A DNA stretch of 32,000 nt, taken from contig JAGWGU010000002.1 of assembly GCA_028867275.1 (NCBI GenBank), positions 67,667-99,666 of the forward strand. Reading direction: 5' to 3'. A program made the position numbers and the translations under genes. Shown here in pieces: positions 1,119 to 32,000 of the stretch. Source of the DNA: Nitrososphaerota archaeon. GTDB taxonomy: Archaea; Thermoproteota; Nitrososphaeria; Nitrososphaerales; Nitrosopumilaceae. How positions within the stretch are numbered: the stretch's first letter is position 1; each line of letters starts with the position of its first letter. The notes below the pieces were generated by a model. The model was not told the DNA's origin and made no database searches. It saw only the letters and a list, made by a program, of their open reading frames with translations.

Positions 1119-1838
1119 TTAATTTTGTTGTTTGTTGCGTGTAACTGCAATTACTGCAATCACCACCCCTGCAATGCCTATTCCAATCCCAGTCATGCTT
1201 ATCATGTACAACTTATCAGTAGTGTCTTTAACATCACCAAATGATTTTGAAACATCAGCATACCCTTTTGCAGCTACATCAGCACTGTTCTTTGCGTCAT
1301 TTATGTCACTAGTAAGTTGACTTAGTATGGTTCCAAGTTTTGAGCTGATATTTTGCATGTCGGTATTACTTGTACTACTGCCCACCTGAGGAAAGTTCAA
1401 TGTGTCTGAGCTTAATACTTCATCAAGGGGTATCTCACCACTAACGTCTTGATCTTCAACCTTACCATTTATGGCAAGACTGTATTGTCCGGTTTTTGTA
1501 GGAATCACAGTGGCATCATATTCACCATTAGTAGTAGTGCTAGGTAGAAAATCAAGCTGTTTTACTGCATTTCCATATTTTATCGATAATTGTAAATTTG
1601 CAAGTGCATTAATTACAGGTTTACCAGTGTCAAGATGACTTCCCTTTACAACAACAACTACGACATGATTAATTTGACCTGTTAGAGGAGGCTCCTCTAA
1701 CCATCCAACTTCAACAAGATAATTTCCAAATGCTTTTGTTATGTGAGCAGATGCAGGTTGCAAAACAAGACCAGAAAGAGGTGCAGATAACGACACTATT
1801 GCTACTATGACAATTATTGCAAGAATTCTTGTGTTCAT
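1119..1838 (-). CDS. Secreted, C-terminally membrane-anchored beta-rich protein with predicted mature N-terminal His (candidate copper-binding protein)
   Basis: 239 aa. Signal peptide MNTRILAIIVIVAIVSLSAPLSGLVLQPASA|HITKAF with an AxA cleavage motif. C-terminal TM segment GIGIGIAGVVIAVIAV followed by TRNKQQN. It sits in the cluster with CopCD. Confidence 0.7.
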   Translation of the reverse strand: MNTRILAIIVIVAIVSLSAPLSGLVLQPASAHITKAFGNYLVEVGWLEEPPLTGQINHVVVVVVKGSHLDTGKPVINALANLQLSIKYGNAVKQLDFLPSTTTNGEYDATVIPTKTGQYSLAINGKVEDQDVSGEIPLDEVLSSDTLNFPQVGSSTSNTDMQNISSKLGTILSQLTSDINDAKNSADVAAKGYADVSKSFGDVKDTTDKLYMISMTGIGIGIAGVVIAVIAVTRNKQQN

Positions 1839-1864
1839 TGTAATATTACATAATTCCCTGATAT

Positions 1865-2830
1865 TTATCGCAAACCTTTCAGTCTAGTGATTGTGATTAC
1901 ACCAGCGACAGAGATCAAAGTCAATAAGACTGGCAATGGAAATTCAGGCACAGCGGCATTTGGATTACCTGCTGTAGTAGATGATGATTCAAGAGGAACG
2001 TTATAGCCAGAGATAAGACCCGGATGAATACCCTCATGAACATCCATCATTATTGTATTCCCATCAGCCTTTGCATTAAGATCAGAAATTAACTTTGTAA
2101 ATGCATCAGAGATCTTGCTGTTGTATGTATTTGATGGATTTTTCGATGCAACATCACTAAACATTTGTTGTGCAGACATAGCAAGTGCAATGGAGTTGTC
2201 ATAAGCATTTTGGTCAACAATGGCCTGAGGTTGTGGTGCCATACTCATTCCATTCATACTTCCGCTGCTACTCATTCCACCAGTATTGTTACCGTTCTTC
2301 ATGTTGTTCATATTCATGTTACTCATGTCAGTCAAGTCCACAGTGGAATTGATAGCAGTACCATATTTTTCCAACACTTCCTTTGATACATACGCTACTG
2401 CCAAAGCCTGAATTGTAGAATTGTTTGCCTTGTCAGGATCAACTCTTGCTTGAAGTGCTTCTGCCAGATAACCGTTAAGATCAGAGATGTGAGAATCAAC
2501 ACTGGCAGAATCACCAGACTTTGCCGCCTCAAGGGTGGCATTAATGGTATCAGGAATTTCCTTTGCTAAAAGGGAATTACGTTCGCCCATTTCCTTTGTG
2601 TCATTTGCGTTCCAATATTCATTTAGTGCATCAGCATAATAACCAATAGAGTCAGCATTTCCAATATTTTTTGCGACTTGGTTAACTTCTGCCTTTATCT
2701 CATATGTCTTTGCGATAAAGGTGGCACTTTGATCTCCACCAAAATTGTGAGCAAATGCAGGATGTGTGTAAATCATACCTACAACTATAATTCCTGCTAA
2801 ACATAATGCTACTACTTTTTTCACGTACAT
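1865..2830 (-). CDS. Secreted helical Met-rich protein with PEFG-CTERM-like sorting signal and predicted mature N-terminal His
   Basis: 321 aa. Signal peptide MYVKKVVALCLAGIIVVGMIYTHPAFA|HNFGG. The Met-rich tract MSNMNMNNMKNGNNTGGMSSSGSMNGMSM has 8 Met in 29 aa (nt 2240-2326). The C-terminus VPEFPLPVLLTLISVAGVITITRLKGLR has a PEF motif, a TM helix and a basic tail. Confidence 0.75.
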   Translation of the reverse strand: MYVKKVVALCLAGIIVVGMIYTHPAFAHNFGGDQSATFIAKTYEIKAEVNQVAKNIGNADSIGYYADALNEYWNANDTKEMGERNSLLAKEIPDTINATLEAAKSGDSASVDSHISDLNGYLAEALQARVDPDKANNSTIQALAVAYVSKEVLEKYGTAINSTVDLTDMSNMNMNNMKNGNNTGGMSSSGSMNGMSMAPQPQAIVDQNAYDNSIALAMSAQQMFSDVASKNPSNTYNSKISDAFTKLISDLNAKADGNTIMMDVHEGIHPGLISGYNVPLESSSTTAGNPNAAVPEFPLPVLLTLISVAGVITITRLKGLR

Positions 2831-2884
2831 CGTTAATTACATGTTATTTAAAAAGATTATAGTACAAACATCGAATGAAATTTT

Positions 2885-5800
2885 TTGAAAATTCTTGAAA
2901 ACAGAAATACTGAAAAACTTAGCAAGGATGAAATAGTAATAAGACAATTTGGATACTACTTGAAAAAATCACAAAAACAAAAACTAATTATTTTTTTGTT
3001 GATTGTTTCACCATTAGCAATTCTAACAATTTCTCACATTCCAAATTCATATGCACATGCATTAATAGCAAACAGTGATCCAAAACCATCACAGTCACTT
3101 AGTTCCCCGCCATCAAAGATTGATGTTTACTTTACAGATCCAGTAGACATCCATTACAGCCAAATTAAAGTTCTTGATCCCACAGGAAAAGAAATTGAAA
3201 ACAAGGATGAACAATACATCAAGGGTGATCAGACTGCTCTTACTGTAACTCTACCTTCAGGACTTACAAATGGAGTATATACTGTGTCCACAAAGGTCTT
3301 GGACCAAACAGATGGTCATGTTACGGAAAATGCTTTTGTCTTTGCAGTAGGTGTACAAGCTCCATCGTCACCAACAACAAAAGCTGTTAGTTATTCAGAT
3401 GTCATTTCCATACCAGATGCAGTAGCAAGATTTCCTGCCATACTAGGTCAAGTAATTGTAGTCGGTACAGCATTTTCCACACTATGGTTATGGAGGCCAG
3501 TAGGAAAAATAAATGGACTTCAAAAAATCATGTACAATGTTCGTCTCAACACGGACCGACGCGCTTCTACGCTAATGCTCATAGGCGCTGTAGTAGTATT
3601 TGCTTCTGGTTTTGGTATGATATTATCCGTAGCATATTCACTTAACACAGGATTTGCAGATGCAGTTCTGACAAAATTTGGCCAGTCATGGCTAATCCGA
3701 ATGATCTTTTCATCAGCATTACTTGCGTTAACATCTATCTTGTATTTGAGACAAAGAAAATCAAATTTGGAAATTCCTACCGGATGGACTGCTGCAATAC
3801 TTGTCACCGGTTTTGCAGTTCTTGCAACTACAAGCATAATAAGTCATGGTGCTGCAATTGGCGGTTTACCATTCACACTTGATTTCATACACAATCTTGC
3901 GGCATCAATATGGATTGGAGGTGTCATCTACATTGATTGGGTACTAATCTCAAAACTAAAAGAAATGAAGGACAGTCATACACCGTCTGCAGTCTTATCC
4001 ATGATGATACCAAAATTTTCTACCACCGTATTACCAATACTTGGTGCAGTCTTAATCACAGGGCCATTTTTACTATATCTACTTGAAAGTGATCTTTCAC
4101 TTACGATCTCTTCAATTTATGGAAAAATATTGATTACAAAATTTGTTTTTGCAGGAATCATGCTAGTGGTTGGAGGATATCACCAGATTTCAGTACATAA
4201 CAAAGCAAAATCAATTCTCGCCTCAATGACAAAGAAAGAAACTACTGTCATCAGAGGCGCCATAGCTGGTTCAGAATCTATTGACAATGGTCACCACACA
4301 AAATCACTTTTGAATAAATTTGGCATTAGCGCAAAAATTGAATCTGCTGCAGGGATTGCGTTGATAGTTACTATTGCATTATTGGTAAACTCTGGTCTTC
4401 CTGCAACAGAGTTTCAAGATCAGATAATACAAAAATCAAGTGCATTTGCGTTGTCACTTCCAGATCATTCAACTACGGTTTTTTCAGATACTAGATTTGT
4501 GGACAATGGAAACAGAATAACAGTGGCAATAGATCCATACTATGTTGGTTCCAACAATATCAAAATTTCATTCTTGGACAATCAAGGAAAACCGCTTGAT
4601 ACAACAGATATTTTTGTCTCGTTAAATCAAATTGACAGGGGAATTGGTCCATTAAGCCTCAATGCGACTCAAGTTTCCAACGGAGTGTTTACAATAGATA
4701 CTGACGCTATAACCATACCTGGAAATTGGAAGATGGAGGTACAAGGAACGCCCAATACCGCAAACGCATTGAGCCTAGTAGCCACCTATAATTTAATTTT
4801 CAAACCCCAACCCAGTCAAATGACAGCTAACATACAAGAATTTAAAATTCCAGATAATTCAACAATGCCACTTGTCCCAATATACGATAAGCAAAGAAAC
4901 GTGGTGTGGTTTGGAGATTCAAAAATTGGAAGTGGAAGACTGTTTGATTTCAACCTAGATTCAAAGAAATTCACAGAGCATAAGATCAACAATGTAAATT
5001 TGATTACATCAATAGTACTGGATAATAAAAATACCATTTGGTACATTGACCCCATAAACAAAACACTAGGCAATTTTGATCCTTCAGACAATTCGAACAA
5101 GTTGTATACTCTACCCACCAAAGGAATTCTTTCTGGCATAGCATATGACGGAACAGATAACATATGGCTGTCAGCATCAAGTACGGACGAGGTTCTAAAG
5201 TACAACATCATCAGCAGTAAATTTACTTCAATCAAGCTTCCTGCCGGATCAGTTCCACTTGGAATCTATGTCGACCAGGTAGCAAATCAAACTTGGGTTA
5301 CAGAGAGTGGAACTGGAAAAATTGCAAACATAAATGGTTCCAACATGCAATTAATTTCCGAGTACCCTACAAAAAATCAAAATATCACACTTGCTAGCCC
5401 TACTGCCATAGTTGCAGATCCACTTTCAGAAAATCTTTTCATATCAGAGCATGACGGAAAAGCAATTACTAAATTTGATCCATTATTGAAAACGTTTACA
5501 AGATACAATCTAGACCAAAATGGATTGCCTTTTGGCATGGTTTTTGACAACAATAATGAGATATGGATAGCACAACACACATTAGATAAAATTGCAGTGG
5601 TTGATCCTCGAACAGGAAACACAAACGAGTTTTCCATCCCAACGGAGTCTTCCTTTACCCAGTACCTGACTGCTGATGCAGACGGTCATCCAATTTTAGC
5701 AGAACAGAGATCTCATGCAATAGCCATAGTCACCACAACAGCAAATCCGTCATCACCAGTTAAAAATTCACAATCTACTTTGCCAATCACTAATTTGGGA

Positions 5801-11417: not shown

Positions 11418-12122
11418 TTAATTTTTTATTTTTCTTAATTTTGCAAATGCACGCATTCCAAAAAATACTGTAAGAAATGCAACAGTAGCTCCAGCTATTG
11501 CAATTGCAATCATCACAGGATCTGCTGATGCAATAGACGGTTCCGGACTTAGGATGTGAGTAGTAGCAAATGGAGCAATGGAACCATTACTTCTCAGAGA
11601 TTCAGTTGCATGTGGCAGGCTTTTTTGCACAATCTCTTGAACTGGCGCTTTCGGATTTGCAATCTGGTTCTGTTCTACAAGGTAGATCACAGGACCAACT
11701 ATAACAAAGGCTACAATACTTGCTAGATAATGACGCAGCTGTAGAAAAATTGCCTCTTTTTTTGATTTTGAAACGTTATTTTCGGCAGGGTTTTCAGGAG
11801 ATACTATCACAAATGCCGTTTTTACTGGACCATAATACTTCATTTTTTTATTTTTGGAGCTAAGCTCAATTTTCTCTACTTTTATCAATCCTACACCAAG
11901 CAAACGATTGATATGCCAGTTGACAAGAGGAAGCGAAATGTTTAGTGATTTTGCCAGATCGTTTGTGCTTGACACTCCCTGAGATATTTTGCCAAATATT
12001 GCTCTGCCAGTGTCATTTGCTAGTTCTTCGCCAATGATTTTTATCCTTTCATCTTCAGTACTGATTATCTCAATGTGTTCGTGTGCCTTGACAAAAAAAT
12101 CAGAGTTATCATCGTCTGACAT
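11418..12122 (-). CDS. Membrane-tethered winged-helix (ArsR-like) transcriptional regulator
   Basis: 234 aa. wHTH segment GRAIFGKISQGVSSTNDLAKSLNISLPLVNWHINRLLGVGLIKVE, followed by two TM helices (LASIVAFVIVGPVIYLV and VMIAIAIAGATVAFLTVFFGM). Confidence 0.7.
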   Translation of the reverse strand: MSDDDNSDFFVKAHEHIEIISTEDERIKIIGEELANDTGRAIFGKISQGVSSTNDLAKSLNISLPLVNWHINRLLGVGLIKVEKIELSSKNKKMKYYGPVKTAFVIVSPENPAENNVSKSKKEAIFLQLRHYLASIVAFVIVGPVIYLVEQNQIANPKAPVQEIVQKSLPHATESLRSNGSIAPFATTHILSPEPSIASADPVMIAIAIAGATVAFLTVFFGMRAFAKLRKIKN

Positions 12123-29059: not shown

Positions 29060-30205
29060 CTAGACCTGAGCCATTCCCACTATGGCTCGTGGAAAGACAT
29101 CTTTGCGTTGCTCTTCTTCCTTGAGATATTCCTCATATCCTCCTATTGGTCGCAATGACTTGGCATCCATTATAGTGTATTTAGATATCTTTGCTCGACA
29201 AAACAGGTCTTCTAGATCATCTTTTGAGAACCATTTGGAGTAAACACCTTTTGATGTTCGAAGTATTGCATTTTCCACATCTTGTTTTGAGGTCATTATC
29301 TCGCCCACAGTTCTTTTGACCTCTCGGCCATAGAACTTTTTGAGTCCAAAATCTTTGAAGAGTTTCTTGTTAAAGACAGAAACTAGAATAGTACCATGTG
29401 GAAGTGCAAGGCTTTTCATTGACTTTAACATCTGCACCTGCAACTCTGCATTTTCTTGGTTTCCCAGTGTCTGAAAAGTGCAAACTATAACCTTGTGGGT
29501 ATTATCTAGCATCTTTTTGTTTAGATTAAAGTTCTGGGCTATTCCTGTTACTGGAAATATTCTTTTATTTAGAAATTGGCCCAAGCCATATTTTTTGAGC
29601 AATCTTGTAGAGTGAGATATCATCTCCTCAGAATAGTCTATTCCTACAACATATCGCAATTTCTTTTCATATGTCTCATCATATCGGTATAGTCTGCTTG
29701 TTTCAGGATTTTTTTTTAGATCCTTGCATGAGTTGATTCCAATTTTAGATCCTAGCAGTAAGAGATATCTTCCAGGCCCCGAGCCTGCATCAACAAAAGT
29801 CACTTGTTTTTTTTTCAAAAGAGAATCAAGATAGTGCGTTATGAATATCTCCTCAAATCTTTCATATGATCTGGCAGACCAAGCAGCCTCTGTTGGGTGT
29901 ACTACATTTCTAAAATATTGTCTTGCCATGTACTTGCTTGCAATTATTCCTTTGATTAGGTCATGTTCATTTTTTGAAAGATCTCCCATATGCAGTCTCT
30001 TTTTTATCTTTCTTGCAAGTATTCCATTTGTACAAATTTCATGCCTTATACTAGGTGCAAGTAAATTCAGATAGTCATTTTTAAAGACATATCTAGACGA
30101 ACAATTTGTGCAAAACAAATTTTCTCTTTTTTTGGTTGTTTTATCAAACCGCAACTCGTGGCCACAGACAGTACAATTTGCAATTATCGGTTCAATGTTG
30201 GACAA
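29060..30205 (-). CDS. Class I SAM-dependent methyltransferase with N-terminal zinc ribbon
   Basis: 381 aa. The zinc ribbon is CTVCGHEL...CTNCSSRY. SAM motif I is VTFVDAGSGPGRY. TTG start only 2 nt after the stop of the upstream regulator gene. Confidence 0.8.
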   Translation of the reverse strand: MSNIEPIIANCTVCGHELRFDKTTKKRENLFCTNCSSRYVFKNDYLNLLAPSIRHEICTNGILARKIKKRLHMGDLSKNEHDLIKGIIASKYMARQYFRNVVHPTEAAWSARSYERFEEIFITHYLDSLLKKKQVTFVDAGSGPGRYLLLLGSKIGINSCKDLKKNPETSRLYRYDETYEKKLRYVVGIDYSEEMISHSTRLLKKYGLGQFLNKRIFPVTGIAQNFNLNKKMLDNTHKVIVCTFQTLGNQENAELQVQMLKSMKSLALPHGTILVSVFNKKLFKDFGLKKFYGREVKRTVGEIMTSKQDVENAILRTSKGVYSKWFSKDDLEDLFCRAKISKYTIMDAKSLRPIGGYEEYLKEEEQRKDVFPRAIVGMAQV

Positions 30206-30207
30206 GA

Positions 30208-30990
30208 TTACTTTTCTGGCGTAGTACCATCGTATGCATCTTCATTACTTTTCTTTTTAGTAATCTTTTGTTTTGACGAACCCTCATCTTTTATGTATGT
30301 ATCATAAGTTCTATACACCTGTCGTATGGTTTTAAGATAAGACTCAAAGTCTGGGAGTTTTATTGGTTCATAAAAATAATTCATGTGAACTTTGGTCAGA
30401 TTATTCTTAGATATTCCCACACCTTCAAGCACATGGATTGGCTTGCTGTCAACAGAGTGGACCCAGCCAAGAGACCTAATTTTTTCCACCATCTCTTCAA
30501 AATGACCAGTCTCATTTGTTACTATTCGTAGAATAAAGTCATAGTTTTGTCCCTCTCCCTGGACCACGTCAATTGTTGTAACAATACCATATTCTCGACT
30601 AATTTCTACCAAATTGTTGTACATTTCAGAATATGGAATAACTCGACGCTCAAAAAGCGGGTTCTGGGTTTTGATAAAAGTATACCATTGGTTATCAAAT
30701 AGCTTGCTTGGATCAACAAGAATCCATTTTATCTTGTCGTCTCTCTTACTGTCTGCAGTATTGTTATGCTCCAAAATAACACCCTTTTTTATCAAGTCCT
30801 CGATTCTGCCCTTGACATTATCTCGTGATAGCACGTAACCATGTTTTTCAAGTTCCTTGTTTGCAGTGTCAGGAGTAGCACCGCTTTGTAAAACTTGCAA
30901 TATTAGCACATCAAGTGGGCTGATGTCATTTTTTGTAAGATTTTTCATCGGGATTGCCCCTTCAGGATTATCCGTTCCTCTTCCTACCAT
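30208..30990 (-). CDS. Lrp/AsnC-like regulator (wHTH plus RAM-like domain) with Lys-rich C-terminal tail
   Basis: 260 aa. wHTH DVLILQVLQSGATPDTANKELEKHGYVLSRDNVKGRIEDLIKKGVI. RAM-like YTFIKTQ...VTTIDVVQGEGQNYDFILRIVTNETGHFEEMVEKIRSLGWV. ATG 30948 (MKNLTK...) is an alternative start. Confidence 0.65.
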   Translation of the reverse strand: MVGRGTDNPEGAIPMKNLTKNDISPLDVLILQVLQSGATPDTANKELEKHGYVLSRDNVKGRIEDLIKKGVILEHNNTADSKRDDKIKWILVDPSKLFDNQWYTFIKTQNPLFERRVIPYSEMYNNLVEISREYGIVTTIDVVQGEGQNYDFILRIVTNETGHFEEMVEKIRSLGWVHSVDSKPIHVLEGVGISKNNLTKVHMNYFYEPIKLPDFESYLKTIRQVYRTYDTYIKDEGSSKQKITKKKSNEDAYDGTTPEK

Positions 30991-31049: not shown

Positions 31050-31163
31050 TAAAACACCAATGTTCTAGGCATGACCAAGTTAGATTCATTCCTAAAATGA
31101 TCTCCACATTTCTGCGGCAAAACGTGTTCTAATTGATTTATAATTTCTCTGACAAGTAACGCC

Positions 31164-31391
31164 ATGACAACAATACCAACAGTTGAAAGAACTGAGACAA
31201 CAAAATGCAGTGCATGTGCTCGCAACTGTGCACAACTATGCACACAATGCGGAAAAAACTTTTGCACAAAGCACCTACTCGGGCATGCCGAGAAATGTAG
31301 TGGATACAAGGCAGTCATCCACAAAATACTGCAAAACGACATGAAAGAGATTGTAAAACAGGTCATGGAGGCAATGCTAAGATCGATATGA
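31164..31391 (+). CDS. Small Cys/His-rich zinc-finger protein (two-zinc, cross-brace-like spacing)
   Basis: 75 aa. CSACARNCAQLCTQCGKNFCTKHLLGHAEKC gives 7 Cys and 2 His within 31 residues. A helical tail follows. Confidence 0.6.
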   Translation: MTTIPTVERTETTKCSACARNCAQLCTQCGKNFCTKHLLGHAEKCSGYKAVIHKILQNDMKEIVKQVMEAMLRSI

Positions 31392-31395
31392 CCAG

Positions 31396-31463
31396 CACCA
31401 AATCCCCTGATGAGTCCGTGAGACTCGGACGAAACAATATTGTCGGGAGAAAACTAGGAGGTG
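31396..31463 (+). ncRNA. Type I hammerhead self-cleaving ribozyme motif
   Basis: The core is UCCC-CUGAUGA-GUCCG(ugagacu)CGGAC-GAA-ACA(auau)UGU-C|GGGA (31403-31448). All invariant core positions are present, including the G10.1-C11.1 and A15.1-U16.1 pairs and C17 in a GUC triplet. An outer helix I arm pairs CACC 31396-31399 with GGUG 31460-31463. Predicted cleavage lies between 31444 and 31445. Confidence 0.75.
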
Positions 31464-31464
31464 A
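31457..31464 (+). promoter_or_regulatory. Shine-Dalgarno sequence GGAGGTGA for the downstream secreted-protein gene
   Basis: Full-length SD 10 nt upstream of ATG 31475. It overlaps the 3' strand of the predicted outer helix I of the hammerhead. Confidence 0.5.
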
Positions 31465-31474
31465 AACATAGAGA

Positions 31475-32000
31475 ATGAATGGAATAAAAATACAGCTAGT
31501 TCTTGCAATTAGTGCAGGATCATTGCTATTGAGTGCAAGTTACGCAGGGTTTGCCTGGGCAGATTCAGGACAGAATTCTTTAGGCAACATACAGATCAAG
31601 GCTACCGATGCAATAAAGAATGATCCTGGCATGATGAAGATACTATACAACATAGAACTCTTCAAGCAGCAATATGCAGCTCAGCAACAAAAGCAAGCAT
31701 ATCAAGACCAGCAGCAAAAGTTGATTGACCAGCAACGCAAACTTGCAAATGATTACTTGCAAGCAGATCTTGCTAGCGCAAACAACGCCAATGATATGAG
31801 CAACCCGACAAACGCATACTCAGGCTTTGTAAGCAAAGTGGATAGCTCTGCTCAAGGAGTATTCCTAGATGAGTTTGCATACATGCAGGCAAAGGTAGCA
31901 CAGGGAAAACTTGCCATGAACAAAGTCTTGCAGCATGGAGGCTCACGTAGTGAAGCATTGAATGCATACTACAATGGTGCTGCAACACAAAAGACAGAAT
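31475..32000 (+). CDS. Partial secreted Gln-rich helical protein (3' end beyond window)
   Basis: Absent from the track because no stop lies in the window. The frame stays open from ATG 31475 to 32000: MNGIKIQLVLAISAGSLLLSASYAGFAWA|DSGQNSLG...QQYAAQQQKQAYQDQQQKLIDQQRK... It has a signal peptide and is preceded by a strong SD. Confidence 0.7.
   Translation, partial: MNGIKIQLVLAISAGSLLLSASYAGFAWADSGQNSLGNIQIKATDAIKNDPGMMKILYNIELFKQQYAAQQQKQAYQDQQQKLIDQQRKLANDYLQADLASANNANDMSNPTNAYSGFVSKVDSSAQGVFLDEFAYMQAKVAQGKLAMNKVLQHGGSRSEALNAYYNGAATQKTE

Follow-up and report, generated by a model that had tools for sequence, protein, structure and literature searches.

A probable self-cleaving type I hammerhead ribozyme between the two genes of a conserved operon in Nitrosotalea-like ammonia-oxidising archaea

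What can a spacer of 83 nt do between two small genes of an archaeon? The question is raised by a stretch of 32,000 nt from a Nitrososphaerota archaeon (contig JAGWGU010000002.1, positions 67,667 to 99,666), referred to in the following as the window, in which the spacer 31392–31474 separates the stop codon of a small open reading frame, ORF1 (31389–31391), from the ATG of a second one, ORF2, at 31475. An initial annotation of this DNA described in the spacer a complete type I hammerhead ribozyme. We infer, from the comparison of related loci, that this hammerhead self-cleaves the bicistronic mRNA of a conserved two-gene operon in a Nitrosotalea-like ammonia-oxidising archaeon, a reading to which we give a probability of about 0.8.

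Positions 31396–31463 read CACC AAA UCCC CUGAUGA GUCCG UGAGACU CGGAC GAA ACA AUAU UGU C GGGA GAAAACUAGGA GGUG. The hammerhead lies at 31403–31448 on the + strand, all invariant core positions are present, and every hammerhead coordinate given by the initial annotation proved correct when the sequence was read again (the parts are listed in Table 1). The pairs that flank the core are all standard (G31414–C31430 at 10.1–11.1, G31445–C31406 at 1.1–2.1 and A31434–U31443 at 15.1–16.1), helices II and III are capped and helix I is open, as in the type I topology. The hammerhead consensus of Perreault et al. 2011 (PMC3088659) includes a rule against mispairs adjoining the core, and the motif has the sequence and fold features of the class as given by these authors, namely the core, an H at position 17, no mispair adjacent to the core, three helices with comparative support and the type I topology. 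A strict descriptor (the core strands CUGANGA and GAA, 4 bp or more in stem I and in helix II, an A...U helix III of 3 bp or more, and any base but G at position 17) matches the window only once on the two strands, at 31407, and gave a single match in total across 1000 dinucleotide-preserving shuffles, the chance expectation being about 0.001 per window.

The evidence that carries our reading comes from relatives that were chosen through a protein, independently of the RNA pattern. When one genome per species was scanned with the ORF2 protein, 20 loci came back, including the complete chromosome of Ca. Nitrosotalea devanaterra (L008; LN890280.1, with the equivalent spacer near 1,192,000), several metagenome-assembled genomes of Nitrosotalea and other Nitrosopumilales; in 20 out of 20, the motif stands directly before the Shine–Dalgarno sequence and the start codon. 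Eight further loci were obtained by exact protein look-up and scanned with the covariance model R1 described below (seven distinct contigs, L150 being a duplicate of L149; L154 and L155 were left out). All eight carry the motif, which gives 28 of 28 protein-anchored loci, with one copy just upstream of ORF2. The C3–A9 strand is invariant in the 20 distinct sequences of this set except at N7, which is U, A or C, and position 17 is C or A. The helices change in a compensatory manner: GUCCG/CGGAC of helix II becomes GUUCG/CGAAC or GUCUG/CAGAC, and helix III, of 3 to 6 bp with differing loops, also shows compensatory changes. The species with a helix III of 3 bp, whose ORF1 is 73–84% identical to that of the window, keep an intact core, and their loop changes from AUAU to ACAU.

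In a model-based alignment of the 28 loci (20 distinct), 94.2% of the cells are paired, as against 31–47% when the 3' partners are slid, and four pairs show compensatory change. Folding the spacer as a single sequence gives z = −0.89 and a minimum free energy (MFE) structure that is not the hammerhead; since single-sequence folding is uninformative for small ribozymes, comparative folding was used instead. RNAalifold, run on 18 distinct spacers, predicted stem I, helix II and helix III de novo and nothing else. The claim of the initial annotation that a complete type I hammerhead, with scission predicted at 31444/31445, fills this archaeal spacer is borne out by these data, and the check that it proposed on orthologous spacers shows the core kept with compensatory helix changes. 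As far as sequences can tell, the pattern of variation is what a working hammerhead allows, and the motif is very probably a genuine type I hammerhead rather than the product of chance or contamination.

The same conclusion is reached with relatives found through the RNA. The model R1 was built from a seed of 24 relatives with a 16-nt helix III, to which the window does not belong; it scores the window at 64.9 bits (E = 7e-18), as the sole match in 32 kb, and of the first 100 loci that it was applied to, 99 have a single copy each. Metagenomes scanned with a DNA pattern yielded at least 120 loci (L021–L140), in which the core and helix II are fixed by the search pattern. Among the matches listed, 133 copies were parsed (98 unique), which share the common helix II/loop II module and have very different stems I (UCCC/GGGA, GGGCC/GGCCC, AAGCCC/GGGCUU, ACCC/GGGU) and helices III (ACAAC/GUUGU, ACACUC/GAGUGU, ACCCGC/GCGGGU, ACGCC/GGCGU, ACCAA/UUGGU); in the 98 unique copies, position 17 is occupied by C, A or U, never by G. 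Helix III of the relatives has 3–8 bp and varied loop lengths. Its overall lengths, from 10 to 27 nt, are not multiples of three, so that the conservation is not that of a coding sequence. A gap-free alignment of 24 sequences, in which only stems I and III are informative because the core and helix II are fixed by the pattern, has 96.4% of its cells paired and seven pairs changed on both sides; its covariation is 0.386, compared with 0.105 after shuffling, and none of 500 shuffles was as high. Across both alignments, controls with slid partners gave 24–48% of paired cells, versus 94–96% in register.

The genes on either side suggest in what kind of transcript the hammerhead resides. A full-length ORF1 homologue is found by tblastn directly upstream of the hammerhead in all 65 loci of the group that we refer to as A that have enough sequence, and the position of the ribozyme is kept among these loci while the identity of ORF1 falls to 35%. 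Residues C15, C18, C26, C29, C34, H37, H41 and C45 of ORF1 are invariant or nearly so. Comparison with the PDB gave only weak zinc-finger matches, Pfam and NCBIfam have no family for ORF1 or ORF2, and an exact look-up of ORF1 in the protein collection returned no record. Gene callers often miss ORF1, or call an antisense open reading frame instead (L149–L152), and this type of small protein is probably under-annotated in public genomes. Upstream of ORF1, the promoter sequence GATTTATAATTT(C/T)TC is nearly invariant and lies about 15–29 nt before the ATG, at a fixed distance, in the 29 of 29 group A loci listed. With the usual archaeal spacing between TATA box and start, transcription would begin at the ATG of ORF1 or directly beside it, and the ORF1 mRNA would be leaderless. 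The Logan contig ERR13253153_227371 (L156) ends exactly 1 nt before this ATG; this would fit a leaderless start if the run were RNA, its library type being unspecified, and it may be a coincidence. Further upstream, at about −55 to −40 of the ATG, is an imperfect palindrome of the form TTTTGYnGCAAAA; it and the promoter block occupy 31105–31149 of the window and have the same position in L001–L020 and other loci. This palindrome and the TATA block look like a possible operator for a regulator plus a TATA box.

On the other side of the ribozyme, the Shine–Dalgarno sequence reads GGAGGTGAAA in 19 of the 20 ORF2-anchored loci and is nearly invariant in group A, rare variants differing by one base (GGGGGTGAAA in L011, which is the twentieth locus, and GTGAGGTGAAA in L027). 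Such a sequence is complementary to the 3' end of 16S rRNA. The ORF2 protein has an N-terminal, hydrophobic, signal-like segment followed by a Gln-rich body, and its product (about 209 aa) looks secreted. The ORF2 family comprises about 170–235 clusters, the named members of which all belong to Nitrosotalea, Nitrosopumilales or Thaumarchaeota; a profile search for distant ORF2 homologues without a ribozyme covered the best 120 of about 235 clusters. Among the relatives compared, no conserved TATA-like element is found inside the spacer. An AATATT within helix III of the window looks TATA-like; the sister species have ACAACATTGT at this place, and neither the palindrome nor AATATT is kept.

The genes that flank the pair, an upstream one that codes for a protein of about 260 aa and a downstream one that codes for an fn3 protein of about 550 aa, are both on the minus strand, which delimits a unit made of ORF1, the ribozyme and ORF2. 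Taken together, the conserved promoter, the adjacency of ORF1, the Shine–Dalgarno sequence and the opposite orientation of the neighbours point to a two-gene operon. The upstream region 29060–30990 of the window (minus strand) holds the 260-aa protein and then a 381-aa protein with a zinc ribbon and a methyltransferase domain. The 260-aa protein has no match in Pfam and only a very weak match in NCBIfam, to a LysM-regulator-like family, and its gene stays adjacent to ORF1 in distant relatives. In the vicinity of the locus, genes of mobile elements were not noticed.

Table 1. Coordinates in the window of the hammerhead parts and of the elements of the putative operon
Feature	Position	Strand	Remarks
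Imperfect palindrome, type TTTYTGYnGCAAAA, possible operator	31109–31122	+	29/29 group A loci listed
Promoter core GATTTATAATTTCTC	31135–31149	+	TATA box TTTATAA at 31137–31143
ORF1, first cistron	31164–31391	+	75 aa, Cys/His-rich, zinc-finger-like protein
Stem I, 5' strand UCCC	31403–31406	+	sequence reading; conserved AAA before it at 31400–31402
Core strand C3 U4 G5 A6 U7 G8 A9 (CUGAUGA)	31407–31413	+	
Helix II GUCCG/CGGAC	31414–31430	+	5 bp; 7-nt loop UGAGACU (family loop consensus UGARAYN)
Core G12 A13 A14 (GAA)	31431–31433	+	invariant among relatives
Helix III ACA/UGU	31434–31443	+	3 bp; AUAU loop; shortest form in the family
C17 and N1.1, predicted scission point	31444/31445	+	position from the hammerhead consensus
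Stem I, 3' strand GGGA	31445–31448	+	conserved GAAA directly after
Shine–Dalgarno sequence GGAGGUGA for ORF2	31457–31464	+	12 nt after the cut site, 10 nt before AUG
ORF2, second cistron	31475–32000	+	runs off the window; homologues 207–236 aa

The following sequence of events can be proposed. Transcription would start at the TATA promoter before the leaderless ORF1 and read through the spacer into ORF2. The emerging spacer would then fold helix II, helix III and the short stem I around the CUGAUGA...GAA core. When a hammerhead cuts 3' of position 17, a 2',3'-cyclic phosphate is left on the upstream product and a 5'-OH on the downstream product; here, the cut would leave the cyclic phosphate on C31444 and the 5'-OH on G31445. 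The products, joined by only the 4 bp of stem I, would come apart at once. The upstream product would be an ORF1 message that ends in the folded ribozyme with its 2',3'-cyclic phosphate, and the downstream product an ORF2 message with a 5'-OH leader of 30 nt, consisting of a 12-nt unstructured lead-in (GGGAGAAAACUA) and then the Shine–Dalgarno region up to AUG. The likely consequence is twofold: each cistron would have a stability and a translation independent of the other, and the ribosome-binding site of ORF2 would be insulated from upstream structure and from the ribosomes that finish ORF1.

A bolder proposal is that the hammerhead is a vertically inherited, non-mobile housekeeping element that acts as a natural insulator across several genus-level lineages of ammonia-oxidising archaea, connecting a leaderless zinc-finger gene with a secreted-protein gene led by a Shine–Dalgarno sequence, and whose folding is gated by the ribosomes that terminate on ORF1. 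The gating is suggested by the position of the ORF1 stop codon, which lies 4–23 nt before stem I in all relatives. We regard this extension as rather doubtful. If it were true, the fate of the ORF2 message would report the translation of ORF1, and the element would be one of the first cases in prokaryotes of a hammerhead whose role in the cell is defined in an organism that can be cultivated, Ca. N. devanaterra.

A number of observations weigh against self-cleavage of a joint message. The co-transcription of ORF1 and ORF2 is itself something that we infer from the layout of the genes. Searches of Rfam at the gathering threshold returned nothing for the whole window and nothing for 20 related loci. 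The covariance-model check suggested by the initial annotation came out divided: in a permissive search of 181 nt, Hammerhead_1 (RF00163, clan CL00010) aligns end to end (model positions 1–45) with a significant score of 26.5 bits (E = 9e-5), which is below the gathering score of 34, and the window-wide search gave nothing. The relatives tested also score below all Rfam hammerhead thresholds. The low score of the window is accounted for by its 4-bp stem I, 7-nt loop II and 3-bp helix III, and it is important to note that a Rfam gathering score is an annotation threshold, and not a property of the ribozyme. In the clade of the window the helices themselves are weak: with 3 bp in helix III and 4 bp in stem I, the hammerhead helices sum to −10.5 kcal/mol, and in an alternative fold, predicted at −18.3 kcal/mol, the 3' half of helix III binds the core and CACC..UCC binds the Shine–Dalgarno sequence. 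These short helices and the more stable alternative mean that cleavage could be slow or partial. Fast cleavage at the Mg2+ levels of a cell calls for a tertiary contact of stem I with loop II, be it loop-loop, bulge or pseudoknot, and a mutual-information scan found no covarying partner for loop II. Last, contigs starting at the cut site were sought as a proxy for in vivo ends, and none was found among six Logan contigs (0/6); these six, which are short-read assemblies of unspecified library type, all span the uncut spacer.

Conservation extends to loop II (UGARAYN) and to the sequences next to stem I, AAA before UCCC and GAAA after GGGA. It does not extend to the outer arm of helix I. The initial annotation had drawn this second arm between CACC (31396–31399) and GGUG (31460–31463); the letters are there, but the arm is conserved neither in register nor in existence, and its GGUG is part of the Shine–Dalgarno sequence GGAGGUGA. 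We rejected it after finding, in 59 unique relatives, duplexes of 3–6 nt between the 5' flank and the Shine–Dalgarno region at shifting positions. By eye, loop II could plausibly form a pseudoknot with the 5' flank in L004, L006 and L010; this was rejected as well, mutual information giving it no support.

Could the fold be conserved for another reason? The spacer may form a structural element, for instance a stabiliser of the 3' end of the ORF1 message or a spacer that positions the ribosome on ORF2, the ribozyme being weak or inactive and any cleavage incidental. The energies given above, which make spacers of the window type the weakest in the family, are in line with this idea, and 4 of 18 consensus hammerheads were inactive in vitro in the study of Perreault et al. 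(PMC3088659). A structural role alone, however, would not fix all 11 unpaired nucleotides of the core and limit change to N7 and H17, and the species whose helix III has only 3 bp keep the core intact despite their AUAU to ACAU loop change, so that we consider this explanation unlikely. A regulated switch appears to us more unlikely still. In this scheme the alternative fold, by pairing the core with UUGUCGG and hiding the Shine–Dalgarno sequence through CACC...UCC, would hold back both cleavage and ORF2 translation until a signal, or the ribosomes terminating on ORF1, turn them on together. The MFE structure of the window spacer is exactly this fold, and the ORF1 stop codon would be within the reach of a terminating ribosome; yet the alternative helix is broken in many relatives by N7 = A or H17 = A, which led us to reject the fold as a conserved switch, most relatives lack the CACC/GGUG arm or have it displaced, and the fold is neither recovered by RNAalifold nor supported by covariation in the mutual-information scan.

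That the ribozyme works as a dimer is very improbable. Helix III of the window and its loop (31434–31443) form a perfect 10-nt palindrome (ACAAUAUUGU, or ACAATATTGT as DNA), which could pair between two transcripts and extend helix III, in the manner of the hammerheads with a short stem III of retrotransposons, ASBVd and newt, and dimeric hammerheads with a short stem III are documented, according to a citation in PMC5737381 and the legend of Figure S8 of PMC3088659. The palindrome is not conserved: the sister species have the non-palindromic ACAACAUUGU, and most members of the family have a normal helix III of 5–8 bp. As for a chance resemblance, a vector contamination or an assembly artefact, the initial annotation had warned that the stretch CUGAUGAGUCCGUGA resembles a laboratory construct, the classic sTRSV-derived minimal hammerhead. 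This caveat can be put aside: CUGAUGAGUCCGUGA is the commonest natural helix II/loop II module, which many viral contigs carry and which the consensus lines of types I and III in Rfam also contain. The element recurs in the same gene context, with natural variation, in the genomes of 20 species (among them the complete chromosome of Ca. N. devanaterra) and in more than 60 metagenome contigs, and a chance match is expected 0.001 times per window, so that the probability of this last explanation is practically negligible. A type I hammerhead that cleaves the message between ORF1 and ORF2 is the reading that we retain.

The helix II/loop II module is not confined to the Nitrosotalea-like loci. 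Groups of matches outside Nitrosotalea include one that precedes a DUF932 protein, and an IMG/VR contig with a gene for an HK97-type capsid. The hot-spring contig L064 carries a hammerhead of the same type and codes (1826–4895) for a Prim-Pol primase-polymerase and a D5-like helicase, which assigns the hot-spring group to a plasmid or virus-like element. A second scan, of viral sequences, returned contigs with up to nine type I copies in 7 kb, each 20–35 nt before a Shine–Dalgarno-like sequence and ATG; in L144 (1335–6896, IMGVR_UViG_3300041956_000313), nine hammerheads with the same helix II/loop II occupy about 7 kb. The module is therefore common among contigs of viruses and mobile elements, and the copy in the window is a chromosomal one. 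Current Rfam thresholds miss this whole sub-family of canonical type I hammerheads, whether its members lie in archaeal genomes or on contigs of viral or mobile-element origin.

Other features of these contigs were noted in passing. L142 and L148 are, like L144, viral contigs that have the module before start codons. On L030 (QZGF01000070.1), a second and more divergent copy (11937–11998, 50.4 bits) follows 4 kb further downstream; the first copy matches an IMG/VR contig with an HK97-type capsid gene. The genes 3' of the ribozyme differ among hot-spring contigs, one having a weak Hfq-like (Sm-type) match and others being small open reading frames without a Pfam match. In these contigs (e.g. 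L024 5875–5960, L064 6610–6700, L114), the GGCC that makes the 3' strand of stem I has a second possible partner in a GGCC a few nt further on, or alternatively GCCC-GUAA-GGGC can form; either pairing would give the new 5' end a hairpin that closely precedes the Shine–Dalgarno sequence, and L114 has changes on both sides of it (GGCU...AGCU).

How does this hammerhead compare with those already described? It is a new example of a well-known class of ribozymes, and not a new kind of RNA, although the relatives arguably make up a well-populated new sub-family. It shares with the type I hammerheads of RF00163 the core, the three-helix junction, the open helix I and the GUCC...GGAC helix II of the Rfam consensus. 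Unlike most known members of type I, which are eukaryotic repeats, it is single-copy, chromosomal and archaeal. RAGATH-1 (RF03152), which is type I-like, gives the second-best Rfam alignment; the scores, 15.2 bits for the window and 21.7 bits for L024, are far below its gathering threshold of 56.3, and the upstream hairpin of RAGATH-1 is absent in the window.

Archaeal hammerheads were reported in 2011, with "at least three representatives" (PMC3088659). The statement of the initial annotation that none was known in ammonia-oxidising archaea is too strong, since a type I construct from Cenarchaeum, JP_270-t1-Cenarchaeum, is among the entries of Table S1 there. As listed there, this thaumarchaeal hammerhead resembles that of the window in its type and in its core (CUGACGA...GAAAC), and it differs in having GUCC-UAUGU-GGAC as helix II, a helix III of about 10 bp and GCCAUA/UGUGGC as stem I; no Shine–Dalgarno sequence follows within the construct, which, judged by its entry in the table, is not orthologous to the window locus. 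Our literature search, which did not cover the archaeal survey of Gupta and Swati (2016), found no paper joining hammerhead and Nitrosotalea.

Of the thousands of hammerheads known in prokaryotes, nearly all belong to viruses or mobile elements, and the biological roles proposed for them are unproven (PMC3088659). What distinguishes the present one is that it is single-copy and chromosomal, and that it has been kept vertically between the same two genes while ORF1 diverged to 35% identity. Its presence in the cultured Ca. Nitrosotalea devanaterra makes the role of intercistronic self-cleavage in an operon testable, in archaea whose first cistrons are typically leaderless and whose internal cistrons use Shine–Dalgarno sequences.

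The closest parallels in position are with prophage and viral hammerheads. Those of prophages flank genes and have been proposed to cut long transcripts into gene-length mRNAs, and in the haloviruses HF1 and HF2 a hammerhead precedes a start codon by 13 nt, with a 5' end mapped at most 3 nt from the cut site (PMC3088659). Like them, including HHphage of HF1/HF2, the window hammerhead lies just upstream of a start codon in a polycistronic unit. Contrary to the viral and prophage elements that occur in clusters, it is present as one copy (a single R1 match in 32 kb, one per Nitrosotalea-like locus) between conserved cellular genes on both sides, and it is canonical, whereas HHphage has an atypical insertion in the core. 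The insulators of the RiboJ type offer a further comparison: there, a hammerhead placed before a ribosome-binding site gives a defined 5' UTR (untranslated region) independent of the upstream sequence (PMC7536230). The hammerhead of the window also stands ahead of a ribosome-binding site, and the hot-spring relatives even have a hairpin after the cut. RiboJ is an engineered, sTRSV-derived element for use in bacteria, while that of the window is natural, archaeal and devoid of the post-cleavage hairpin, so that the comparison is a functional analogy, not a homology. The cleavage that we propose between ORF1 and ORF2 would match the role put forward for prophage hammerheads, the case of HF1/HF2 and the behaviour of the RiboJ insulators.

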